NCBI GenBank assembly: GCA_902797795.1
Contig: CADBUF010000012.1
Location: 232 to 64,231 of the forward strand
Direction: 5' to 3'
Source: an uncultured Erysipelotrichaceae bacterium
Lineage (GTDB): Bacteria; Bacillota_I; Bacilli_A; RFN20; CAG-826
Length of the DNA stretch: 64,000 bases
In this document: positions 31,797 through 50,472 of the stretch, one piece after another
How positions within the stretch are numbered: the stretch's first letter is position 1
Layout: each line of letters begins with the position of its first letter
Notes under the pieces: generated by a model
Told to the model about the DNA's origin: nothing
Seen by the model: the letters and a program-made list of their open reading frames with translations, nothing else
The model's database searches: none
Position numbers and translations under genes: made by a program

Positions 31797-32720
31797 CTAT
31801 TTCTTTTTCTTTTTCTCTGTGTCTTCTTTATGAATCTGTTTCATTTCTTCTGTGTCTTGTTTGCCAGAAGTTTCGTTATAGAAGTTAACAATAATAGAGG
31901 TGATGACCGCCACAACGACAATGCCGTACATACCAAGAAGCACAGTAACTACTCTACCAATTAACGTTTTAGCAGTGAAATCGCCAAAACCAATCGTAGT
32001 GACAACCGCAAAAGAGTACCATAATCCATCACCAAAAGTTGTAATCGATTCTTCAAAATAGGCAAAGACAATCGCAGAAGCCACTACCATGGTTAATAAA
32101 CCAAGGAGAACTTCTAAAGCGAAAGTACGGATGATGATTTTTAATAATGTCTTTAGTTTTAATTGTAAGAAAGCGTTTGCAAGAACTTCGATTAAAGAAG
32201 CAATAATGACAATAAAACAAACTATCATAATTGGGGCAAACATTTCCGTAGGTCCATAAGGCACAAATAAACCAAGAGCGAGTAAAGCAAATAAAGTAAT
32301 AATAAGAGCGTTTAAAACAATACTTCTAACCGTCGGCTTTTGAATGATTTTAAAGATACGGGAAATAATAATAGAGATACAGAATATTCCCCCGCATGCA
32401 GAATAACAATAGGAGTTATCTTTACCAAAGTAGGCAATTACGCCTAGAGAAATATTTAGAACAAATAAAAAGGCAAATCTTATTAAATTAGTTCTTGTTC
32501 GATCTCTTAAATACGTAACGAATCTTGATAAACCTAAAACAATAAAGATTAAAAACATATAAACCGACACCATAGTAGCGTCAGGTGGAGTTAATCTTGC
32601 GTAATATAAGGCCATGATTGAAAAGGCCATGATGATAGTTGAAATAGCACTACCAAGAGTGAGCAAAAGCACCCTTACAGTGGTTTCAGTTAATTTTATT
32701 CTTCCGTGTTTTTTACTCAT
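31797..32720 (-). CDS. potassium-channel-like membrane protein (paralog A)
   Basis: 307 aa. Multi-TM N-terminus, pore helix + selectivity filter WYSFAVVTTIGFGD followed by an inner helix, Lys-rich C-tail. Confidence 0.65.
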   Translation of the reverse strand: MSKKHGRIKLTETTVRVLLLTLGSAISTIIMAFSIMALYYARLTPPDATMVSVYMFLIFIVLGLSRFVTYLRDRTRTNLIRFAFLFVLNISLGVIAYFGKDNSYCYSACGGIFCISIIISRIFKIIQKPTVRSIVLNALIITLFALLALGLFVPYGPTEMFAPIMIVCFIVIIASLIEVLANAFLQLKLKTLLKIIIRTFALEVLLGLLTMVVASAIVFAYFEESITTFGDGLWYSFAVVTTIGFGDFTAKTLIGRVVTVLLGMYGIVVVAVITSIIVNFYNETSGKQDTEEMKQIHKEDTEKKKKK

Positions 32721-34632: not shown

Positions 34633-35475
34633 TTATATAAATAATTGTTTGATTGTTTTGACAATCTTTCGTCTTTTTCCTTGATATATTCCATCACCAG
34701 AATATAGAACCTTAAATCCACACTTATCTAAAACCCTTAAGCTTGCCTTGTTGTTTTCAAGAACAACACCATAGACTTCTTTTAAATTTGTGTTTCTCTT
34801 TAAATATCCTAAGAAAAGATTTACGGCTTCTGTTGCATACCCTTTTTTGGTAAATAGTTTAGCGATGTGATAGCCTATTTCCCATCCTTCTTTTATTTTT
34901 ACTAATTGAATGTAACCAATATTTGCATTATCGTCTTTTCTAATAATTACGTATACAAACGGACCGTTTTCGCTACCATAGTTTTTAATAATTTGATCTA
35001 CCACTTCGCTAGCTTCTTCTAAAGATTCAAAGACTTCATCTGGAGAAAATTTTCTGTTGTCTTCGTCTTGTGAATTACGAAACACATCATAATACATGGA
35101 TTGATTCATTTTAGCTATATAGAGTCTATTTCCATCAATAAGTTTTTCACTTGTGTTTAATAACTCTTTGTTAACAATGTCTTTCCAATCTTGAAAATGA
35201 GAAAGAACACGTAATATAAATACGGTTTTTGTTGATTCGTTAATTTGATAAATAGCAATGTGATTTAAGCAAACTAAATAGTAAGACCTTGCATAATCAA
35301 ATAATGAATTTCTAATTTTGATTCCGCGGCTTGGAAAAGTAGATAAAGATTCCAATTTATCAAATATTTTTTCAATGTAATGAGTCGCAGCATTTATATT
35401 ATCAGCAGAAATAAAAGACTTGATGTTCTCCAAGTCTTTAAAGGCAGAATTAGAAATAATAACATTATATGTCAT
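34633..35475 (-). CDS. fusion protein: ParE/RelE-family type II toxin domain (N-term) + GNAT N-acetyltransferase domain (RimL/Acetyltransf_3-like, C-term)
   Basis: N-terminal about 95 aa has ParE/RelE hallmarks (FPSRGIKIRNSLFDYARSYYLVCLNHIAIYQINESTKTVFILRVLSH). C-terminal part has GNAT motifs (IGYIQL...GYATEAV...NKASLRVLDKCGFK). 4-nt overlap with the upstream antitoxin gene. Confidence 0.65.
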   Translation of the reverse strand: MTYNVIISNSAFKDLENIKSFISADNINAATHYIEKIFDKLESLSTFPSRGIKIRNSLFDYARSYYLVCLNHIAIYQINESTKTVFILRVLSHFQDWKDIVNKELLNTSEKLIDGNRLYIAKMNQSMYYDVFRNSQDEDNRKFSPDEVFESLEEASEVVDQIIKNYGSENGPFVYVIIRKDDNANIGYIQLVKIKEGWEIGYHIAKLFTKKGYATEAVNLFLGYLKRNTNLKEVYGVVLENNKASLRVLDKCGFKVLYSGDGIYQGKRRKIVKTIKQLFI

Positions 35476-35720
35476 AGCAATTTCTTTTTTGCCTCGGACA
35501 AAGGCATCATTCTTCCATTTGCAATATCCGCAATACCTTCATTAATTTTTTGCATTAAATCAATACTTCGATATAGTTCGTCTAAAACATGAGAAGCGAC
35601 AATAGCGGTATCTTCTTTACCATTTACAGTAATATATACAGGCTCTTGCGTTAATTTGCACAGCTCACTTATTTCTTTGTATTTGTTTCTTAAGTCTGCA
35701 CTTGGTCTAATAATCGCCAT
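35472..35720 (-). CDS. Phd/YefM-RelB-like type II antitoxin
   Basis: 82 aa. MAIIRPSADLRNKYKEISE...PVYITVNGKEDTAIV resembles Phd/YefM antitoxin fold. Overlaps the toxin gene by 4 nt. Confidence 0.55.
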   Translation of the reverse strand: MAIIRPSADLRNKYKEISELCKLTQEPVYITVNGKEDTAIVASHVLDELYRSIDLMQKINEGIADIANGRMMPLSEAKKKLL

Positions 35721-35880
35721 AAAGATGCCTCCTTTTTATATCATAATTATATCATATATATCATTTTTTGCAATTCAAGCAACACGAAATTTGATTTTGC
35801 CAAAAGTAGATGCTTTATGAACAGAAAATGAAAAAAGTCACCTTAAGGTGACTCTAATCTAATCGTTAATTTTGATTAAA

Positions 35881-36496: not shown

Positions 36497-38020
36497 ATGA
36501 AACTATTAAGGATTATCTTTTCTAAATGGAGTATTTCCATCATTTTACTTTTAGCCCAAGTTGCGGCGATTGGACTAATTATTTATTTCTTAAATGCCTA
36601 CTATTACATTTTCCAAATCGTCTCTCTTGTCATTGGAATAATTGTCTTCTTTGTTCTTATAAATCGAAAAGAGAACCCAGAATACAAAATTCCTTGGCTC
36701 TTCTTAGTTCTCATTCTTCCTCTATTTGGTGTCCTTTTCTATTTGATGTTTTCCAAACAACACGCGAGTAAAAAAACGAGAAAATTCTATAAAGAAGCCT
36801 TAGATAAACTCGCCCCATATGTCGAAAATAATGAAGACAATGAAAAAGTCTATGAATATATGGGTGAATATCAAGGTGTTGCTAAATATTTAAAACAAAC
36901 ATCTGGCTTAGGTGGCCAACTTAATAACGACATCAAATACTACCCAGTAGGTGAAAAGATGTGGGTTGATATGTTAGAAGCACTTAACTCCGCGAAGAAA
37001 TTCATCTTAATGGAATATTTCATTATTGATCCAGGAATCATGTGGGATTCAATTCATGAAATTTTAGTCAAAAAAGCGAAAGAAGGCGTCCGCGTTCACC
37101 TTGTCTATGATGATTTAGGAACGATGACAATGCTTAAAAGTAGTTACTATAAGAAGCTTCGTAAAGAAGGTATCGATGCGCACAAATTTAATCCATTCAC
37201 TCCAATTGTGAGTGCAGTATATAATAACCGCTCACACCGTAAAATTATGGTGGTTGATGGAGAAGTTGCCTTCACTGGTGGTATTAACCTTGGTGACGAA
37301 TATATCAATAAAAATGATCGACTTGGTCACTGGAAAGATACTGGTATTAGAGTTAAAGGAAGTGCTGTAAATACTTTAACCGCTTTATTCTTCTTTGATT
37401 TCATCGTTGCTAAAAGAAAAATTCCAGAATTTGATTTCTACTTCAATCCAAATCCAAAGAAATTTAATCAAGAAGGGGCAATCGTTCCTTTTGGAGATGG
37501 TCCAAAGCCAATGTATGAAGACCAAATTGGTGAAGAGAGTTTAATAAGTGTTATTGGTAGAGCCACTAAATATTTCTATATCACAACCCCATATCTCATC
37601 ATTGATTATCATCTCACTATGGCGCTTAAAGACGCCGCTAAAAGAGGGGTTGATGTTAGACTAGTAACTCCTCATATTCCAGATAAGAAAGCAGTTTTCT
37701 GCTTAACAAGAAGTTCGTATAAATTCTTAAGAGAATCAGGTGTAAAGGTTTATGAATACACTCCTGGATTCATCCACGAAAAAACATATCTATGTGATGA
37801 TGTAATAGGATTTGTAGGAACAATTAACCTTGATTATCGTAGCTTAACCCATCACTATGAATGTGGCGCGATTATTTATAAACACGAATGCTTAAAAGAT
37901 ATCAAAGAAGACTTTGAACATATATTCTCCATTTCGCAATACATTGATGACAGCTTTAAATTGTCAGTGGGTGCGAAGTTAGTAAATGCATTGCTCGCTG
38001 TCTTTAGAGCGTTGTTCTAA
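36497..38020 (+). CDS. cls: cardiolipin synthase
   Basis: 507 aa. Two N-terminal TM helices and two PLD HKD motifs (HRKIMVVDGEVAFTGGINLGDEY and HEKTYLCDDVIGFVGTINLDYRS). Confidence 0.9.
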   Translation: MKLLRIIFSKWSISIILLLAQVAAIGLIIYFLNAYYYIFQIVSLVIGIIVFFVLINRKENPEYKIPWLFLVLILPLFGVLFYLMFSKQHASKKTRKFYKEALDKLAPYVENNEDNEKVYEYMGEYQGVAKYLKQTSGLGGQLNNDIKYYPVGEKMWVDMLEALNSAKKFILMEYFIIDPGIMWDSIHEILVKKAKEGVRVHLVYDDLGTMTMLKSSYYKKLRKEGIDAHKFNPFTPIVSAVYNNRSHRKIMVVDGEVAFTGGINLGDEYINKNDRLGHWKDTGIRVKGSAVNTLTALFFFDFIVAKRKIPEFDFYFNPNPKKFNQEGAIVPFGDGPKPMYEDQIGEESLISVIGRATKYFYITTPYLIIDYHLTMALKDAAKRGVDVRLVTPHIPDKKAVFCLTRSSYKFLRESGVKVYEYTPGFIHEKTYLCDDVIGFVGTINLDYRSLTHHYECGAIIYKHECLKDIKEDFEHIFSISQYIDDSFKLSVGAKLVNALLAVFRALF

Positions 38021-38028
38021 TGCACAAG

Positions 38029-38054
38029 AAAAGCGGGATTCCCGCTTTTTCTCT
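38029..38054 (+). terminator. rho-independent terminator after cls (possibly bidirectional)
   Basis: AAGCGGGAttCCCGCTT hairpin followed by TTTTTCTCTT. Confidence 0.7.
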
Positions 38055-38971
38055 TATTCCTTCTTGTTTTGTTCTTCAAGTTCCTTGATTTGTTTTTCAA
38101 GTCGCTCAATATCTCTTTGTTCTCTTTTCTTGTTCATTTCGTTATAGAAGTTAACGATGAAGGAAGTGAATACCGCGACAACGGCGATGCCACTTATTCC
38201 CAAGAAAACTGATAGAATTCTTCCAAAAGTAGTAACTACATATACATCACCAAAACCAATCGTGGTGATAACCGCAAATGAATACCACAAAGAATCAACA
38301 TAACTCACAATATTTGGTTCCACTAAAGTGAAATATAAGGAACATAAAATAACAAGGATAGATAGAGTTAAGATAATCTCATTAATAAGTGACTTTTTAA
38401 TGATGTTACTAATGACATTGAATTTTAATATGTTTTGATAAGGGAAGAGCAAATTCTTACCACTAGAAACAATGATCATCGAAGAAAAACATAGAACGAT
38501 AAAATTAGAATTACTAACTGAGGTAGCGTGTTTACCATAGATTTCTGGGAAAAAGAACACAAAAGAGAAGAGGAACGCTAAAGTGATACATAAACAGTTG
38601 AATATGATTGATTGTAAAGAACGATCTTCTCTTATCTTAAGTAAACGATAAACAACGATTGTTAAAGAATATAAGAACATCGAAGTAATAAGGAAATATA
38701 TGCTATATTTAGTAAGTGAGACTAAGACAGCAAGAACAAAAATAAAGGCGGTTAAGAAAATGTTTTCAAACATGTTCTTTTTAAAATTTGAAAGGTGTAA
38801 ACCAACGCGATTAATACCTAAACATACTAAGGCAATTGATAATGTGTAAAGACCAACGTAACTATCCTCCACTGAAAAAGCAACTGTGGCTATACAAAAA
38901 CCAATCGCGATTATTCCACTAATTAAGCCAAATATGTAGTAAGGGTTTTTTCTGTTTCCAACTTTTTCCAT
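38054..38971 (-). CDS. potassium-channel-like membrane protein (paralog B)
   Basis: 305 aa. WYSFAVITTIGFGD filter, same architecture as 31797-32720. Charged coiled-coil-like C-tail (EQRDIERLEKQIKELEEQNKKE). Confidence 0.65.
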   Translation of the reverse strand: MEKVGNRKNPYYIFGLISGIIAIGFCIATVAFSVEDSYVGLYTLSIALVCLGINRVGLHLSNFKKNMFENIFLTAFIFVLAVLVSLTKYSIYFLITSMFLYSLTIVVYRLLKIREDRSLQSIIFNCLCITLAFLFSFVFFFPEIYGKHATSVSNSNFIVLCFSSMIIVSSGKNLLFPYQNILKFNVISNIIKKSLINEIILTLSILVILCSLYFTLVEPNIVSYVDSLWYSFAVITTIGFGDVYVVTTFGRILSVFLGISGIAVVAVFTSFIVNFYNEMNKKREQRDIERLEKQIKELEEQNKKE

Positions 38972-43236: not shown

Positions 43237-46200
43237 TTAATCGTCCCTTTCAAAGTAATCTAAGGAAATCAAAGACTTAATAGCCTTAGTTAAATATTCT
43301 TGGTCAGTAATTGGCCATTTATAGCCTAAGCGGTAAAGCGCTTTAATCGAAAATGAATTATCGGTAAGGATATAAGAGTGAGAATGATTATCACTACTTG
43401 TATAAGTAATTAAAGCAGACACTTTCTTGCTCTTAACGTCATCATTTGTAGCTTTAATAACCTCATCCATAAATTCTTTATCCCCAACTTTTTCAATCTT
43501 TAAGCCACAGTCATTCATTGCTTCAATCACATCACCCATTTCTACAGGATGAGAATTTGCACTATGGAAGACGGTGAATTCTTTTGGAGCGGTCGCTAAA
43601 ACGAGAATGCTCTTAGCGACTTCATCAATTGGAGAGAAGTCGGTCGTTTCATCCAAAGAAGAGATTGGGAATTTTCCTAAAGCGTAATAACCTCGTAGAG
43701 ATCGCATAAATCCGTTAGTAATAGAGTTAATTTGGAATTCTCCATCGCTTTGACGTGACATCAAATTACCGACACGAACAATCTTTCCATCTAATCCATC
43801 TTTATTAATTGCCTCTAACATCGCTGCTTCCGCCATAAACTTAGAATGGATATATTTGTTAGAAATATCTTGTCCGATGTCTAATTGGTTTTCTTTCATA
43901 CGGAAGTTTTCAGCGAACTTATGGTCAATATTTTCGCCCGCAACTGATAAAGTGGAGATTTGAATCATTCTCGCATTATGCTTTAAAGCGATTCCAATGA
44001 GGTTTTTCACCCCTCCAACATTAATTTTTTCAATGATATCATCATTTGAGAAATGTTTAACAATCGCTGCTGAATTAATAAGTGTGTCAAATTTGATATC
44101 TTTGAGTTTATCGGTTAAGTTCTCGTCTGCAATATCTCCATCAACGATATGAATAAAGCTATCAAGTTCTTCAGTAAATGGAGAATCGAAATAATATTCA
44201 AGTAATAGAGAAAGTCTACTATGTAAGGAGATTTGTTTACTTCTTACTAACACATATGTTTCTATGTGCTGATCAATTAATTCTTTAAGAATATGAATTC
44301 CTAAAAAGCCAGTCGCACCAGTTAAAAGGACAACACCTAAATCTCTTTCTTTATGAATATCATCAACATATTCAATCGTGTTTTTATTAAGCGCTGCATA
44401 TTTATTATCCTTAGATTCTTCTACTGCTTTTTCTTCTTCCACCACCTCTTCATCTTTATTAATTAATGAAGCAAGTTCAAGGGCAGTAGAATGTTCAAAA
44501 ACATCTTTATAGGCAATTGGTAAGCCCTCTTTAAGAGCGAGCATTGCAACTTTTGAAGCGCTTAAAGAAGTACCACCTAATTCAAAGAAATCTTCATCGA
44601 TTCCGATATCTTGTTTTCCAAGGGCTTTAGCAAAGATTTCACAAATCGTTTTTTCAGTTTTGTTTCTAGGTGCTTTCTTTTCTTTATTAGAGGAAGTAGA
44701 AACAATTTCTGGTAATGATTTCTTATCAATCTTGCCATTAGGAGTAAGAGGGATACGATCAAGTTGCATCATTGCTTTAGGAATCATATATGGGGTAAGT
44801 GATTTTGCCATATATGAAGTTAAAGTTTCTTTATCTAAAGGTTTTGACGCGGTGTAATAAAGCGCTAAATAGTCGCCATCAACATCATTATTTTTCACTA
44901 AAATGACGCATCTAGTGACGTCTGGATGAGAATTACAAACGTTTTCAATCTCATCTAATTCAATTCTTAATCCATGTAATTTTATTTGGTTATCAAGACG
45001 TCCAAAGAATTCGGTGTTACCTTCATTATTCATTCTAGCAAGGTCACCACTTCGATAGGCTCTTTTACCGTTTAAATCAATAAATGAGGCTTTGGTTTTT
45101 TCTTCAAGTTTATAATAGCCAATACCAACACTATCACCGGCAATAGTTAAATCACCAATCGCATTAATTGGTAAAATATGACCAGCCTTATCCAAGATGT
45201 AATAGCTAGTGTTAGCAACAGGTTTACCAATAGTGACATATTTATCAGTAATAAAGGTCATTGATGAAGTAATCGTTGTTTCTGTTGGACCATAACCATT
45301 ATCAATCAGGCAATCAATGCCATGTTTTCTTATACGATCCACTAATTCATAAGGAACAGCCTCTGCTCCCATATCAAGCACTTTGAAGTTCTTTAATGCT
45401 TCAACAAATTCTAGAGTATCTAAAACGTTAGAAACGTATGAAGGAGTTAAGAACATAATGTTAACTCCATATTTCTTTAATGTTTGTGATAATAAAAGTG
45501 GGTTTTCAATCTCTTCTTCACTAGCGATCACTGCTTGATAACCATGAGAGAGAATGACACATTCTTCTTGTAAAGAAGCATCAAAAGCAAAAGAAGCAAA
45601 CGAGCAGCTAGACACTTTGTCTTTAATAATGCGATATTCGTTAGTGGCTAAATTAGCGCCATCTAAGACATAATTTGATAAATTCTTATGACTAATCATC
45701 ACCCCTTTAGGTTTACCAGTGCTACCAGAGGTATAGATGATGTAACATAGTGAATCTAGTGGGATACCAATATTTAAATTGCTTGTCTTATTAGATTTCA
45801 AAATGTCTTCAATTAAAAGAACTTTAATCTTTGTCTTTTTAATGAGGTCATGTTTTTCTTTTTCAATATCTTTAGTGGTTATTAAAATCTTCGCGTCACT
45901 ATCGGTGATGATATATTCAATACGATCATCAGGATATTTAGGATCAATAGCGACAAAGGCTCCACCCGATTTAAGAATACCTTCTCTAACGAAATAAGCA
46001 CTTACTCTTCTAGGCATGAGCATGATTACTCTTTCACCAAGAGCGACTTTATCTTCAGACAAAGCATGAGCGACTTTATTCGCGTTTTCGTTAAATTGTT
46101 TATATGTATATTCTCCATCAACACCCGCTAAAGCGAGTCTATTTGGATATTTCTCCACTATTTCTTCTACGATCTTAGGGTAGGCTTTATTTGAAGGTTT

Positions 46201-49200
46201 AACATATGTTTGGTTAAATTCTTCATATAACTTTTTATCAACTTCTGGTAAGCAGTTAATTTCACTGATGTGTTTTTTAGATGTCACTTCCAGTAACGCC
46301 AATTCAAATAATCTAGCAAATGATTCAATCGTATTCTTGTTATACATTGATTCATCATATTCAAAATGAAGTTTGAATTTATTATCTTCGATGAAAACAT
46401 CTAAAGAGAATAGTGATTTCGCATCATCTGAATCCAATATCACACTTTCAGCTTTCTTATTACCGATTTCATTAAATTCAAATAAGTCTCCTTGATAAGC
46501 AAACATCACATCACTAGTGATATTAAAGGCTGAGGCTATTTCTTGGAAAGAATAGATGTCGTTTATTTGTGAAGACTCTAATTGTTTCTTCATCTCTTCT
46601 AGTAGAGATAACACTTCATCATTTTCTTGATATTTAACATAAACTGGTAAAGTTTTTACCATCATCGAAACAGTGTTCATGTTCTTAGATGAATTTCTCC
46701 CATTATAGATAGTGACAAACAAAGCATCCTGCTTATAAATAAATTTAGAGAAGGTAAAACCAAATACGAAGTTAGTGATCGCATTTAGGGTTAAATTGTT
46801 CTTACTAGCGAATTCTTTAATCGCTTTGACATCAATATTAGAATAGATATCTTCAACATGTAATTTAGCGACTTCTTCAGTCTTTAAATCTTTCTTCATG
46901 AGATATCCATCTTCGACATCTTTCAATAAAGTAGCGTAATATTCTTTCGCATTTTCATAGGCTTTTGAATTACGTTTATCGTTCTCTTCTAAAGCAAGTT
47001 CATAGCCAGTGAAGGTTTCTTTTTCAAGCTTTTCACCAGAATAAGCTTTATTAATATCATTTAAAAGGATATTTTCACTAGTGCCATCACAGATAAGATG
47101 ATGAACATCTAAGAAGAGGTAATTATTATCTTTACATTCATAGATTTCAACACGATATAAAGGACCACCAACGATTTCAAAAGGTCTAACCAAAGATTTT
47201 TGATCGAGCTTATTAGCTTTAATAATTTCAACTTTTGGTTCAGCTTCTTTTCTTATAGCCTTGATGTTCCCATCATCGTCCATCTTCAAAGTTGTTAAAA
47301 GATATTCATGAGCCTTTAAGGCCTTAATCACACTTTCATTAAGTTTATTGATATCGATAGACTTATCAATTTTAAATAATAAAGGAATGTTATAATTTGT
47401 ACTTCCAACTTTAGCGATTGATTCAATAAAGATACCTTCTTGAGTCTTGGTTAATGGGTATTCACTTAATAAATCATAAGTCTTGTTTTCATCTTGTTCT
47501 TCCATCAAAGAAGCGAGTTCTTTAATGTTAGGGTGCTCGTTTAAATCTTGAGAAGAGATCTCTTTATTAAATGCTTTAGATAATCTCACAGTTAAAGTGA
47601 TAGAAGAAATAGAGGTAATACCAGCCTCATATATATCAGTAGTCACTCCAAAAGAATCATGACCTAAAATCTCTTTTATAATATCAAAGATCTTTTGTTC
47701 ATTTTCAGTGCTAGGTTTAACGACATCCTCCACTTTCAATTCAGGAACTGGTAAAGCTTTTTTATTCACTTTTTGGTTTTGATTAAGTGGAATTGCATCT
47801 ATTTGCATAATATATGGGGGGACCATATAAGGTGGCTTTTTACTTTTAATGAAAGCTTTTAAGTCATCAACGTCAATCTTTTTATCACTGACGATATAAC
47901 CCACGATATATTTAACTCCAGCGGGGTCCGCAAAATCTTTAACAGTCGCGTCTTTAATGTCTGGATATTGTCTAATAACTTGTTCGACTTCACTTAATTC
48001 CACACGGAAGCCACGTATTTTCACTTGGAAGTCTTTTCTTCCAATAAAATCGATATCTCCATTTGGAAGGAATCTTACGATATCACCAGTCTTATAAAGT
48101 TTTTTAAATCGAGGATCATCATCGAAAGGATTAATCAAGAAGGCCTTTTTATTTTCTTCGTCTCTATTTAGATATCCACGAGACACTTGAGGACCAGAAA
48201 TATATAACTCACCTTTAGCAAGATATGGTAATCTCTTTTTATTTTCGTCTAATACATAGAATTTATAATCGCTTAAAGCGTGACCAATTGGGATACGATG
48301 ATAAAGTTTATCAACATGATATCCGGAACAATATATTGTTCCTTCTGTTGGTCCATATAAATTGAATAGCTTATAGTTTTTAGGTGGGTCAAGAGGGACT
48401 AACTTTTCTCCTCCTACAGAAATAGTTCTAATCGTTTCAAATGTTAATTCACTCACTAATTGTCGACCTACTTGAGTAGTAAAGAAGGCATCAGTAATTT
48501 TATTTTCATTTAAATATTTATTTAGTCCAATGAGATCTAATCGCATCTCTTCAGGAATGATATAAATAGTTCCCCCGACCACGATAGTTGGATATAAATC
48601 AAGCATATCAGCGTCAAATCCATATGAAGCATAGGCACTCACTCTCGCGTCATGTTGGAGATTTCTAAAATTAATATCAACATTACAAACTGACATGATG
48701 TTTTGGTGTTCTAACATTACTCCTTTAGGAACACCAGTGGAGCCAGAAGTATATAACATGATAAAAAGGTTTTCAGGTCTAGGTCTATTTGTAGGTCGAG
48801 ATTCATCTTTCAATTTATCAAATTCATCAAGATAAATAACTGGGCCTTTATATTCATCGAGTAAATCAATATATTGTCTTTCGGCGATAACAACTTTACT
48901 AGATGCATCCTTAACCATGAAGTTAAGTCTTTCTTTAGGATAAGAAACATCTAATGGTTGATAGGCTGCACAAGATTTAATAACTCCTAAAGAGGCAATA
49001 ACAATATATTCACTTTTCGAAATAAGGATTGAAACTTTGTCTTCCTCTTTAACACCAAGTCTAATCAATTCATTAGCGATTCTATTTGAATAGAGGTCAA
49101 CTTCCTTATAGGTGTAACTCTTATCTTTATAGACCACTAAGGTTTTATTGGGCTCCTTATTAAGCCAATAATCAAATTTATCAAGAATTGTTTTTCCCTG

Positions 49201-50472
49201 TTCAAGTTGACTCATATCAACATGATTAAAGTCATCTAAAATCTTGATTTGTTTTTCATCTAAAAGTTCAATTTCTTCAAGTTTTAATGGTGATTTGAGC
49301 AGTTTTTTAAGAATTATGTCATATAAATCAATGATTTGATTAATCGAGTCATCACTATATAAATCACTTCTAAATTCAAACCAAATATAGAACTTATTTC
49401 TATCTCTATGGATCTCAATAGACATGATTCCTTTTCCATCTTTTTCTTCGATTTGTTTAGCCACTACTTCTTTGTCGTTGAATGTTGTTTTAAACATATA
49501 ATCACCTTGATAGGCAAATAAGATTTCAGGAGAGACACCTAAATTTGTAACAACTTGAGAGAAGGAATATAAATCATGTTTAACATTATTAATCAATTCG
49601 TCATTAACCTTATTAAACATTTCTTTGGAAGTTTTGATATTTTCTAAATTGAGATAAAGAGGGAATGTCCTTACAAACATACCAAAAGTATTTTCTAATG
49701 TTTCATCTCTACCATTATGAATGGAAGCAATTATTACTTCTTTGTCCATGTTCACTTTTGAAAGGAGGAACATAAAACAAGAGATAAAATAGCTTGATGT
49801 TTTAATTCCTTGCTTATGAGTAAATTCACGAACCTCACTAGCGTCAACTTTTAATTCTTTTTTAATCGTATGATGACTAATTTCTTCTTTTTTATAGTCC
49901 TCGACTATTGTACTTTCAGTGTCGATTCCACCATAGTTGTCTTTATAATATTTTTCAGCTTCTTTAAATTCCTTGGATTTTAGAAGTTTTTGTTCGCGCT
50001 TACAGTAGGAGAAGACATCTTCTTTTTCAGAAGGTATTTTCTTTCCTTTATATAAAGCATCTAAGGAATCAATGAATAATTTAATTGTGTTACCATCAGC
50101 GATGATGTGATGGAAATCAAAAAATAGATAATATTCTTTATTAACTTTTAAAAGCTCAAAACGATATAAGTGATGGTTAAATAGATCAAATTCCTTCACC
50201 AACCCTTTTTCATTAATCTTTTTTAATTCTTTAAGAGGGACTTTGATATCTTCTACATGACATTCTTTGTAGAAGTTTCCTTCATCATCTTTTTTAATGA
50301 TCGTAAATATCCCTTGATGGACTTTACTAAACTCATTAATAGCGGCCTCTATTTTCTTGGCGTCAACATCTTCTCCTAAAGGTAATAAAGAAGGGAGGTT
50401 ATATTTAGTTGTCGGTTTTAAACATTCAAACAAAATCCCTAATTCAGATTGCGATAAAAGATACTTTTCCAT
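43237..50472 (-). CDS. dimodular non-ribosomal peptide synthetase, C-A-T-C-A-T-R (terminal thioester reductase)
   Basis: 2411 aa. C1 HHIIADG (aa 121-127). A1 cores LYTSGSTGVPKGV / NLYGPTEG / YKTGDIVRF...GRKDFQVKIRGFRVEL with FDAD (Asp235). T1 GITSIS. C2 HHLICDG. A2 YTSGSTGKPKGV / NGYGPTET / YRSGDLARM...GRLDNQIKLHGLRIEL with FDAS. T2 LGGTSLSA. R domain Rossmann VVLLTGATGFLGIHIL. Confidence 0.95.
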   Translation of the reverse strand: MEKYLLSQSELGILFECLKPTTKYNLPSLLPLGEDVDAKKIEAAINEFSKVHQGIFTIIKKDDEGNFYKECHVEDIKVPLKELKKINEKGLVKEFDLFNHHLYRFELLKVNKEYYLFFDFHHIIADGNTIKLFIDSLDALYKGKKIPSEKEDVFSYCKREQKLLKSKEFKEAEKYYKDNYGGIDTESTIVEDYKKEEISHHTIKKELKVDASEVREFTHKQGIKTSSYFISCFMFLLSKVNMDKEVIIASIHNGRDETLENTFGMFVRTFPLYLNLENIKTSKEMFNKVNDELINNVKHDLYSFSQVVTNLGVSPEILFAYQGDYMFKTTFNDKEVVAKQIEEKDGKGIMSIEIHRDRNKFYIWFEFRSDLYSDDSINQIIDLYDIILKKLLKSPLKLEEIELLDEKQIKILDDFNHVDMSQLEQGKTILDKFDYWLNKEPNKTLVVYKDKSYTYKEVDLYSNRIANELIRLGVKEEDKVSILISKSEYIVIASLGVIKSCAAYQPLDVSYPKERLNFMVKDASSKVVIAERQYIDLLDEYKGPVIYLDEFDKLKDESRPTNRPRPENLFIMLYTSGSTGVPKGVMLEHQNIMSVCNVDINFRNLQHDARVSAYASYGFDADMLDLYPTIVVGGTIYIIPEEMRLDLIGLNKYLNENKITDAFFTTQVGRQLVSELTFETIRTISVGGEKLVPLDPPKNYKLFNLYGPTEGTIYCSGYHVDKLYHRIPIGHALSDYKFYVLDENKKRLPYLAKGELYISGPQVSRGYLNRDEENKKAFLINPFDDDPRFKKLYKTGDIVRFLPNGDIDFIGRKDFQVKIRGFRVELSEVEQVIRQYPDIKDATVKDFADPAGVKYIVGYIVSDKKIDVDDLKAFIKSKKPPYMVPPYIMQIDAIPLNQNQKVNKKALPVPELKVEDVVKPSTENEQKIFDIIKEILGHDSFGVTTDIYEAGITSISSITLTVRLSKAFNKEISSQDLNEHPNIKELASLMEEQDENKTYDLLSEYPLTKTQEGIFIESIAKVGSTNYNIPLLFKIDKSIDINKLNESVIKALKAHEYLLTTLKMDDDGNIKAIRKEAEPKVEIIKANKLDQKSLVRPFEIVGGPLYRVEIYECKDNNYLFLDVHHLICDGTSENILLNDINKAYSGEKLEKETFTGYELALEENDKRNSKAYENAKEYYATLLKDVEDGYLMKKDLKTEEVAKLHVEDIYSNIDVKAIKEFASKNNLTLNAITNFVFGFTFSKFIYKQDALFVTIYNGRNSSKNMNTVSMMVKTLPVYVKYQENDEVLSLLEEMKKQLESSQINDIYSFQEIASAFNITSDVMFAYQGDLFEFNEIGNKKAESVILDSDDAKSLFSLDVFIEDNKFKLHFEYDESMYNKNTIESFARLFELALLEVTSKKHISEINCLPEVDKKLYEEFNQTYVKPSNKAYPKIVEEIVEKYPNRLALAGVDGEYTYKQFNENANKVAHALSEDKVALGERVIMLMPRRVSAYFVREGILKSGGAFVAIDPKYPDDRIEYIITDSDAKILITTKDIEKEKHDLIKKTKIKVLLIEDILKSNKTSNLNIGIPLDSLCYIIYTSGSTGKPKGVMISHKNLSNYVLDGANLATNEYRIIKDKVSSCSFASFAFDASLQEECVILSHGYQAVIASEEEIENPLLLSQTLKKYGVNIMFLTPSYVSNVLDTLEFVEALKNFKVLDMGAEAVPYELVDRIRKHGIDCLIDNGYGPTETTITSSMTFITDKYVTIGKPVANTSYYILDKAGHILPINAIGDLTIAGDSVGIGYYKLEEKTKASFIDLNGKRAYRSGDLARMNNEGNTEFFGRLDNQIKLHGLRIELDEIENVCNSHPDVTRCVILVKNNDVDGDYLALYYTASKPLDKETLTSYMAKSLTPYMIPKAMMQLDRIPLTPNGKIDKKSLPEIVSTSSNKEKKAPRNKTEKTICEIFAKALGKQDIGIDEDFFELGGTSLSASKVAMLALKEGLPIAYKDVFEHSTALELASLINKDEEVVEEEKAVEESKDNKYAALNKNTIEYVDDIHKERDLGVVLLTGATGFLGIHILKELIDQHIETYVLVRSKQISLHSRLSLLLEYYFDSPFTEELDSFIHIVDGDIADENLTDKLKDIKFDTLINSAAIVKHFSNDDIIEKINVGGVKNLIGIALKHNARMIQISTLSVAGENIDHKFAENFRMKENQLDIGQDISNKYIHSKFMAEAAMLEAINKDGLDGKIVRVGNLMSRQSDGEFQINSITNGFMRSLRGYYALGKFPISSLDETTDFSPIDEVAKSILVLATAPKEFTVFHSANSHPVEMGDVIEAMNDCGLKIEKVGDKEFMDEVIKATNDDVKSKKVSALITYTSSDNHSHSYILTDNSFSIKALYRLGYKWPITDQEYLTKAIKSLISLDYFERDD

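Follow-up and report, generated by a model that had tools for sequence, protein, structure and literature searches.

A stretch of 64,000 nucleotides (nt) from an uncultured Erysipelotrichaceae bacterium (contig CADBUF010000012.1; hereafter the window) carries on its minus strand a toxin–antitoxin (TA) gene pair in which a ParE-type toxin continues, within one protein of 280 amino acids (aa), into a GNAT acetyltransferase domain. The locus is probably a working type II TA operon of the Phd/YefM–ParE kind, the toxin gene of which has taken in an ordinary GNAT gene from next to it. Its best reading is a canonical Phd–ParE module with a captured resident, catalytically intact GNAT as a passenger domain. 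The gene pair and the parts of the toxin are as follows.

35472-35720, minus strand: phd antitoxin gene, 82 aa, Phd/YefM-type, first gene of the pair
34633-35475, minus strand: ParE–GNAT toxin open reading frame (ORF), 280 aa
35164-35475, minus strand: ParE-type toxin domain, aa 1-104
35128-35163, minus strand: junction or linker, aa 105-116, variable in sequence and invariant in length
34636-35127, minus strand: GNAT acetyltransferase domain, aa 117-280, Acetyltransf_3 / RimL-MccE-SpeG-like
34834-34851, minus strand: acetyl-CoA pyrophosphate-binding loop, T209-K-K-G212-Y-A214, with the motif Q/R-x-x-G-x-G/A

The fusion is conserved and its junction has a fixed length

An earlier reading of this DNA, made from its letters alone (the sequence-only reading), had described a ParE/RelE-fold domain covalently fused to a RimL-type GNAT in a 280-aa protein, and this description was borne out, both Pfam domains being complete. 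The same fusion was sought in relatives by a search of 5.8 billion proteins, which returned 2048 of them, and architecture was read from the best 120 clusters, which came from the ENA, NCBI, JGI and Logan collections. Both domains were present in every one of these 120 (62-95% identity, 277-282 aa), and the identical 280-aa protein occurred on at least 10 contigs. The fusion was found only in uncultured rumen/gut Bacilli, part of the records being labelled Acholeplasmatales, and its database label was, for example, "GNAT family N-acetyltransferase [Bacilli bacterium]".

The spacing between W97 of the ParE domain and M123 of the GNAT domain was 26 residues in 113/113 sequences scored. The linker between them took the form of 59 distinct strings among 122 proteins, with a mean column entropy of 0.93 versus 0.54-0.62 in both domains, and the junction coincided with the end of stand-alone ParE proteins (at least 6-7 residues past W97) and with the start of stand-alone GNATs. 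Ratios of nonsynonymous to synonymous substitution (dN/dS), estimated by the Nei-Gojobori method on pairs with unsaturated dS (0.37-0.74), were 0.07-0.15 for the ParE domain, 0.06-0.10 for the GNAT domain, 0.07-0.12 for the antitoxin and 0.3-1.2 for the linker; ParE, GNAT and antitoxin are under strong purifying selection, with dN/dS about 0.1. In a full-length AlphaFold model (predicted local distance difference test, pLDDT, 91.4; predicted template modelling score, pTM, 0.85), the linker was the block of lowest pLDDT (73). Taken together, these data demonstrate that the fusion is real and conserved, and sequencing error and recent read-through are excluded; the frameshift artefact that the sequence-only reading had named as a possible source of the ORF thus falls away, given the shared architecture and the fixed spacing.

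A plasmid or phage origin was also considered and was set aside on the absence of the fusion from the collections searched: no fused homologue was found among 72,556 plasmids, which gave only distant GNAT-only matches of <38% identity, and 50,697 phages gave no match. Between the window and its 95%-identical sister strain (locus L025), the ParE domain showed dN 0.034 and dS 0.017 and the GNAT domain a dN/dS of 0.20; no positive selection was called for this ParE pair because the counts are too small.

The N-terminal domain is of ParE type

The N-terminal part of the toxin matched the Pfam family PF05016 (ParE_toxin) at aa 5-97 over the whole profile (1-89/89; 54.5 bits, cutoff 23). It is laid out as a strand (4-7), two long helices paired in a hairpin (9-23 and 27-45), a set of three strands (64-92) and, at its C-terminal end, a short helix, with D14, Y33, N56, H72, R89, S92, Q95, W97 and K103 near-invariant. 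When a profile of the N-domain family was compared with the PDB, 7etr (6e-8), 6x0a and 3kxe came first and Staphylococcus aureus YoeB followed. An AlphaFold (AF2) model of residues 1-108 (pLDDT 83) gave 32 PDB matches in Foldseek at E<=1e-3, all of which were ParE, RelE, YoeB or RelE-fold proteins, and ParE structures (template modelling score, TM, 0.70-0.75) ranked above RelE/YoeB (0.59-0.64). The top ParE matches were Mesorhizobium ParE, PaaA2-ParE2, Mycobacterium tuberculosis ParE1, PrpT, Caulobacter ParE1 and Vibrio ParE2. The model therefore predicts a ParE/RelE fold for this domain, and the possibility raised in the sequence-only reading, that the region might fail to match that fold, was checked and did not materialise, ParE structures being the best matches.

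An extended N-terminal helical hairpin and a conserved Asp in helix 1 are described as hallmarks of ParE in a 2024 review, in which the hairpin separates ParE from RelE (PMC10886550). Both were found here: D14, the helix-1 Asp, was at least 90% conserved in the family alignment, and the model contained the long hairpin (helices 9-23 and 27-45). A YoeB-like RNase active site was examined as a candidate, given that S92-H93-F/Y94 aligns with the S-H-Y of YoeB, which holds its catalytic His-Tyr. In several family members H93 was K, R or Q, and F often stood in place of Y, so that the conserved catalytic residues of RelE/YoeB toxins, such as the C-terminal His-Tyr, were not found as a set. The candidate is unlikely because H93 varies in this manner, and it was weakened further by the higher rank of ParE structures. 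By analogy, a ParE-like, gyrase-directed activity is favoured over a RelE-like one, being roughly twice as probable.

For ParE toxins, toxicity has been reported to need the last ~10 residues, normally a free C-terminus, and ParE with a shortened C-terminus is attenuated (PMC10886550). In the fusion protein, the C-terminal helix of the ParE domain was conserved (W97, I100, N102, K103) but was not free, as it runs on into the GNAT domain.

The C-terminal domain resembles ordinary RimL-type acetyltransferases

The C-terminal domain matched PF13302 (Acetyltransf_3) at aa 117-255, again over the whole profile (1-138/138; 80.9 bits, cutoff 25.4). Residues G212, Y213, A214, W198, E199, G201, Y202, H203, N242 and S245 were at least 98% conserved in 122 fusion proteins. 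The full-length match and the intact acetyl-CoA loop are those of an Acetyltransf_3 GNAT, and the domain looks catalytically intact because this loop, the beta-4 motif (W198-E199-x-G-Y-H-I) and N242/S245 are conserved.

The nearest PDB entry by sequence was 3fbu, a Bacillus anthracis GNAT, followed by SpeG and RimJ. By fold, the full-length model lay nearest to 3fbu, RimL, PA3944, MccE, BlmB (a bleomycin acetyltransferase), a lasso-peptide acetyltransferase, SpeG and AAC(6')-Ie. None of TacT, AtaT and KacT was among the 21 PDB sequence matches or the Foldseek top 50. NCBIfam matches to RelE/StbE, SpeG and RimJ were all sub-threshold, SpeG (25.2 bits against a cutoff of 218) and RimJ (18.6 against 190) remaining below the scores required of equivalogs, and the same scan gave no toxin-family match for the GNAT. 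PADLOC returned nothing relevant, its one match being a weak and unrelated one to Csm3. A TacT/AtaT-like GNAT toxin was accordingly tried as an identity for the domain and was ruled out by sequence, fold, partner type and stand-alone orthologues.

In a 50%-identity library, members of the same GNAT subfamily were mostly stand-alone proteins of ~170 aa, and other fusion partners of the subfamily were NUDIX, HAD, APH, a second GNAT and a Mor-like helix-turn-helix. The varied partners together with the stand-alone forms are what one sees with a generic acetyltransferase of small molecules or peptides. An internal start giving a separate GNAT product was considered at M123/M127 and rejected; both residues fall within the first strand and helix of the GNAT domain and are also kept in stand-alone GNATs. 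No second copy of the GNAT or of ParE was found in the window.

The antitoxin and the control region resemble those of an autorepressed operon

The two genes share a 4-nt ATGA start/stop overlap at 35472-35475, which was also seen at homologous loci L001, L022, L023, L025, L026, L028, L030 and L034. The antitoxin scored 28.3 bits against PF02604 (PhdYeFM_antitox), slightly under the Pfam cutoff of 29.8. PF02604 was present in the precomputed domains of 117/120 listed antitoxin homologues, and a profile built from 22 homologues matched M. tuberculosis RelB1 (9g12_C) with E=6e-7 over residues 5-80, and RelB2 as well. Judged by these profiles, the antitoxin belongs to the Phd/YefM family, and the sequence-only reading was right to place a Phd/YefM-like antitoxin in a 4-nt overlap with the toxin, and its coordinates were borne out.

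The antitoxin was better conserved than the toxin. Its N-terminal 38 aa, the predicted dimerisation and DNA-binding part, were almost invariant, and its C-terminal half, the predicted toxin-binding part, varied. Upstream of it, the following control elements were located.

35834-35855, minus strand: terminator-like hairpin, AGAGTCACCTTAAGGTGACTTT plus T-run, which ends the upstream membrane-protein gene and forms the 5' boundary of the TA operon
35768-35773, minus strand: -35 hexamer TTGCAA, promoter of the TA operon
35746-35751, minus strand: -10 hexamer TATAAT, part of the extended -10 TGATATAAT, inside an invariant 18-mer
35737-35754, minus strand: putative operator TGATATAATTATGATATA, 18 nt, overlapping the -10 and the likely transcription start
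35728-35733, minus strand: Shine-Dalgarno sequence AGGAGG, 7 nt ahead of the antitoxin ATG, read from sequence

The promoter matched 10/12 positions, with a 16-nt spacer and TG ahead of the -10, and a -35-like TTGNNN occurred at the equivalent position in homologous loci. The hairpin at 35834-35855 is a perfect 9-nt inverted repeat (I6) with a 9-pair stem and 4 GC pairs; terminator-like sites numbered 5 observed versus 0.6 expected.

The putative operator TGATATAATTATGATATA consists of two TGATATA heptads, 11 bp (one helical turn) apart, flanking the palindrome ATAATTAT. It was identical in 5/5 aligned upstream regions, in which the surrounding intergenic DNA was unconserved, and it stood exactly upstream of the antitoxin in all loci holding that region (13/13), including the GNAT-less locus L030; it was also exact in the distant pseudo-GNAT cassette at L034. 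This constancy held while the toxins of those cassettes were only 32-95% identical. Within the 64-kb window the element was present in a single copy, where 0.03 matches would be expected at <=2 mismatches. Since it is invariant in every cassette examined, at 15 loci and in the window, and holds the -10, TGATATAATTATGATATA is likely to be an autoregulatory operator, and both the control region and the pattern of antitoxin conservation would be as in a textbook type II TA operon under autorepression.

The locus thus has an adjacent antitoxin gene, predicted to be co-transcribed, with an overlapping stop and start, as is typical of type II TA systems, and by those membership tests that are open to sequence it passes as a Phd/YefM–ParE type II TA system.

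A further perfect 9-bp hairpin followed by a T-run lies at 35414-35439 (minus strand), within the 5' part of the toxin coding sequence, and is terminator-like. A role for it as a terminator was considered and rejected, since it is absent from the other homologues; it is probably incidental because only the window and the 95%-identical L025 carry it.

The two halves of the toxin are separable

Homologues of the cassette and of its parts were found in several states. At L030, a GNAT-less cassette combined an 82-aa antitoxin, the same operator, the 4-nt overlap and a stand-alone 114-aa ParE that was 46% identical to the fused ParE and had the same L-R-V-L-S-H-F-Q-D-W end. Conversely, stand-alone orthologues of the GNAT (L003, L011 and P0121 at L031) were 72-75% identical to the fused domain, and at these three loci no antitoxin-like neighbour was found, the neighbours being unrelated. 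All three fell inside the fused clade in neighbour-joining analysis (97-100% of 200 bootstrap replicates); this nesting implies that a fused GNAT became a separate gene again at least once.

Stand-alone and fused GNATs had equal dN and equal dN/dS (about 0.1). The equal rates and the nesting together suggest that the GNAT was not re-tooled in the fusion, as a toxic or ParE-dependent GNAT could not show such equal rates and such stand-alone existence. The GNAT itself is probably not toxic, given orthologues that stand alone without an antitoxin, and the obligatory antitoxin pairing of GNAT toxins does not hold for a family with the antitoxin-free L003, L011 and L031.

In a sister lineage (P0136/P0390; 269 aa, two clusters known), found at L034:1672-2726 and at L035, the cassette consisted of phd, ParE and a degenerate GNAT without the acetyl-CoA loop, with the same operator. 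Its ParE part was 80% identical to that of the fusion, whereas its GNAT part was 52% identical and had lost the acetyl-CoA glycine loop, with no indels. The cassette therefore persists without GNAT catalysis. The GNAT-less cassette, the lone GNATs, the equal rates and the loop-less sister lineage argue that the TA and acetyltransferase functions are separable, and the two halves look, from these comparisons of sequence, like independent modules and not like a new double-acting toxin. On these grounds only the descriptive part of the sequence-only reading stands: its proposal of a chimeric dual-activity toxin gained no support, the GNAT not being of TacT/AtaT type and existing both in stand-alone orthologues and alongside GNAT-less and loop-less cassettes, and its other suggestion, that the GNAT acetylates or neutralises its own toxin domain, fared no better against the same comparative evidence from lone GNATs and GNAT-less and loop-less cassettes.

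Several observations were made around these homologues. Convergent to phd-parE at L030 lies a gene for an Acetyltransf_5/FeeM-type acyltransferase (L030:1186-1917, minus strand), which is an unrelated GNAT type and whose adjacency may be coincidence. Downstream of the sister cassette is a gene for a 653-aa leucine-rich repeat protein with a faint TIR match. No conserved partner gene was found in the neighbourhoods of stand-alone GNATs. In a metagenome-assembled genome of Clostridia (L002:986-2775), a 50%-identical GNAT orthologue follows and overlaps trmD in a rimM-trmD ribosome-maturation operon, a linkage that was not seen in four other stand-alone GNAT contexts. Immediately upstream of the GNAT P0121 is a gene for a 64-aa peptide (L031:1-195; MRKELLKGLTKEQIAKIKKF...LNAISGGGCDNSS...), which is leader-like and has a Gly-Gly motif; it may hint at peptide modification, the fold neighbours of the GNAT including MccE and the lasso-peptide acetyltransferase.

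A probable captured passenger and its alternatives

In the reading that we prefer, as judged from sequence, a single sigma-70-type promoter would drive the phd and toxin genes, and the N-terminal domain of the antitoxin would bind TGATATA-N4-TGATATA over the -10 and so repress the operon. From family knowledge and comparative evidence, the variable C-terminal half of the antitoxin would wrap and neutralise the ParE domain, and depletion of the antitoxin would leave that domain to poison its target. By analogy this target would most likely be DNA gyrase; a ribosome-dependent RNase action like that of RelE/YoeB is less likely. The GNAT would be a competent, non-toxic enzyme that acetylates amines as its stand-alone orthologues are expected to do, and it would ride as a passenger, its expression slaved to TA autoregulation. 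As to history, a phd-parE cassette may have landed directly ahead of a GNAT gene already in place, or a GNAT gene directly behind the cassette, and the fusion would have arisen once, when the stop codon of parE and the spacer before the GNAT gene downstream were lost. It would have been undone at least once since, and the three-part unit would have spread among related Bacilli.

Several points weigh against this reading. The pTM of 0.85 and the constant linker length suggest that the domains are rigidly packed, such a pTM being hard to reach unless the relative placement of the 105-aa and 170-aa domains is predicted confidently, and rigid packing, as modelled, would be more in keeping with functionally coupled domains than with a domain that is only carried along. 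The junction buries the C-terminus of ParE, on which toxicity is reported to depend, and since a 170-aa domain follows it in the same chain, the protein might be less toxic or toxic in another way. The upkeep of the fusion in hundreds of lineages is not explained by a neutral passenger alone. With regard to the target, the S-H-F/Y of the toxin aligns with the catalytic H-Y of YoeB, and the nearest solved antitoxins partner RelE-type toxins.

Some of these points would be accommodated by a coupled toxin with two activities, in which ParE docks on gyrase or the ribosome and the GNAT acetylates the target, the antitoxin or ParE itself, so that arrest or its control depends on acetyl-CoA. The same pTM and invariant linker length would imply the fixed domain arrangement that such a toxin requires, and both domains are equally constrained, with catalytic motifs intact. 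RimL/MccE-type GNATs, moreover, acetylate protein N-termini and aminoacyl-nucleotides, as structure descriptions and general knowledge indicate. For the TacT toxin, acetylation of its own antitoxin is known (PMC5449658). We nevertheless regard a coupled toxin as unlikely, since stand-alone GNATs 72-75% identical to the fused domain are nested in the fused clade with no change of rate, since the cassette persists both without a GNAT (L030) and with a loop-less one (P0136/P0390), and since the GNAT is no relative of the known clade of GNAT toxins and lacks a DUF1778 partner. The more specific proposal that the rigidly packed ParE–GNAT is a single two-step effector, which would dock on gyrase or the ribosome and then acetylate target, antitoxin or toxin in an acetyl-CoA-dependent step, is a long shot. 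If this holds, its action or its escape from inhibition would be linked, for the first time in a TA toxin, to an acetyltransferase covalently joined to it and through that enzyme to the metabolic state of the cell.

The cassette might alternatively be a domesticated module, in which fusion has blunted the toxicity of ParE and left it as a handle through which a Phd-like repressor controls the level or activity of the GNAT. The reported requirement for C-terminal ParE residues and the attenuation that follows their shortening (PMC10886550) are consistent with this, as are the chromosomal setting with no mobile-element genes nearby and the stronger conservation of the antitoxin relative to the toxin. 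This explanation is distinctly unlikely, however, because ParE is under strong purifying selection that extends to the C-terminal helix (W97, I100, N102, K103), because the pseudo-GNAT lineage conserves ParE while its GNAT decays, which is the opposite of what a GNAT-centred function predicts, and because GNAT orthologues work without any such handle. Lastly, the ORF might be an artefact of assembly or sequencing, or two adjacent genes recently read through in the manner of a pseudogene. For this there speaks, beyond its prior possibility, the position of the junction exactly at the end of stand-alone ParE and the start of stand-alone GNATs, but it is refuted by the recurrence of the architecture in the best 120 independent clusters, the identical protein on at least 10 contigs, the invariant spacing and a dN/dS of about 0.1 across both domains.

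Relation to known systems

The locus is closest in organisation to ParDE-type and Phd(YefM)-ParE systems, such as Caulobacter ParDE1 (3kxe), Mesorhizobium ParDE (5ceg/6x0a), PaaA2-ParE2 of E. coli O157 and M. tuberculosis ParDE1. Like these, it is an operon of two genes in which the antitoxin gene leads and overlaps the next by 4 nt; its toxin has the ParE fold with the long N-terminal helical hairpin and the helix-1 Asp, its antitoxin pairs a conserved, predicted DNA-binding N-terminus with a variable, predicted toxin-binding C-terminus, and a conserved putative operator lies over the promoter. It differs from studied ParE toxins, the C-terminus of which is free and needed for toxicity, in bearing a C-terminal 170-aa GNAT, and from ParDE systems with a ribbon-helix-helix (RHH) ParD in having a Phd/YefM-type antitoxin.

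With TacT, AtaT, KacT and ItaT the locus shares a GNAT-fold enzyme encoded in a TA operon. Those GNAT toxins pair with DUF1778/RHH or DUF4065 antitoxins (PMC9177977), whereas the GNAT described here is of the Acetyltransf_3 subfamily and has neither a DUF1778 nor a DUF4065 partner, the toxin-fold part of the protein is ParE, and the stand-alone orthologues have no antitoxin. From its sequence, the locus would fail every testable mark of a GNAT toxin, namely a DUF1778/DUF4065 partner, membership of the toxin clade and obligatory antitoxin pairing. The domain is instead like the RimL/RimJ/MccE/PA3944/SpeG clade in its fold, its full-length Acetyltransf_3 match and its intact acetyl-CoA loop and beta-4 motif, although those enzymes carry no fused toxin domain.

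There are likenesses, too, to M. tuberculosis RelBE1 and RelBE2, RelB1 and RelB2 being the closest solved antitoxins by sequence profile, and to S. aureus YefM-YoeB, with the S-H-Y of which the C-terminal S-H-F/Y of the toxin aligns; the differences are that the toxin, by both fold and profile, has ParE ranked above RelE/YoeB, and that several family members have K, R or Q in place of the YoeB-like His (H93). The CARF-RelE protein Cami1 (8phb), which was among the fold matches, likewise places a RelE/ParE-fold effector within a larger multi-domain protein, but Cami1 lacks an acetyltransferase and is no toxin of a TA system, being an ancillary CRISPR nuclease that cyclic oligoadenylate activates.

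A fusion of ParE or RelE with a GNAT was looked for in the full text of the literature, and no account of one was found. The fusion thus appears to be undescribed, though databases hold many copies annotated only as GNAT; as NCBI names such toxins simply "GNAT family N-acetyltransferase", the case is also a warning for annotation. TA toxins are almost always small and single-domain, and here ParE carries an active-looking enzyme on its critical C-terminus through hundreds of lineages. The family holds a natural control set (fused, GNAT-less, dead-GNAT and GNAT alone), and so offers a clean natural experiment on toxin modularity and on gene capture by TA cassettes. It is a system suited to asking how much C-terminal freedom ParE needs, whether TA modules capture and stabilise cargo, and whether toxin activity can be tied to acetyl-CoA. 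Should the passenger model prove right, the chief value of the locus would be to illustrate how a TA cassette can capture a gene.

Genomic surroundings

In the window, the neighbours of the cassette are genes for an S41 peptidase, a phospholipase D family (PLD-type) enzyme and K+ channels, together with SpoIIE/STAS genes. A mobile-element context was considered and rejected: no integrase or transposase was found within about ±9 kb of the cassette, and the setting is chromosomal. The three-part unit occupies differing chromosomal neighbourhoods at the window and L025, at L001, at L022, at L023 and L026, and at L028.

Two Ion_trans_2 K+ channel paralogues (31797-32720 and 38054-38971, both minus strand) flank a segment of ~5 kb that holds the S41 peptidase gene, the TA cassette, a membrane-protein gene and the PLD-type gene; the identity of the two channels, only 33%, marks them as old paralogues rather than recombination repeats. 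Between the K+ channel and PLD-type genes, the 95%-identical sister strain has a RelB-family antitoxin gene (L025:863-1117), where the window has a 34-nt gap (38020-38054), so that the TA genes present here are not the same in the two strains. Elsewhere in the window, a MatE/HATPase gene and a SpoIIE-STAS cluster for partner switching have a very large ORF of 2411 aa (43237-50472, minus strand) downstream of them.

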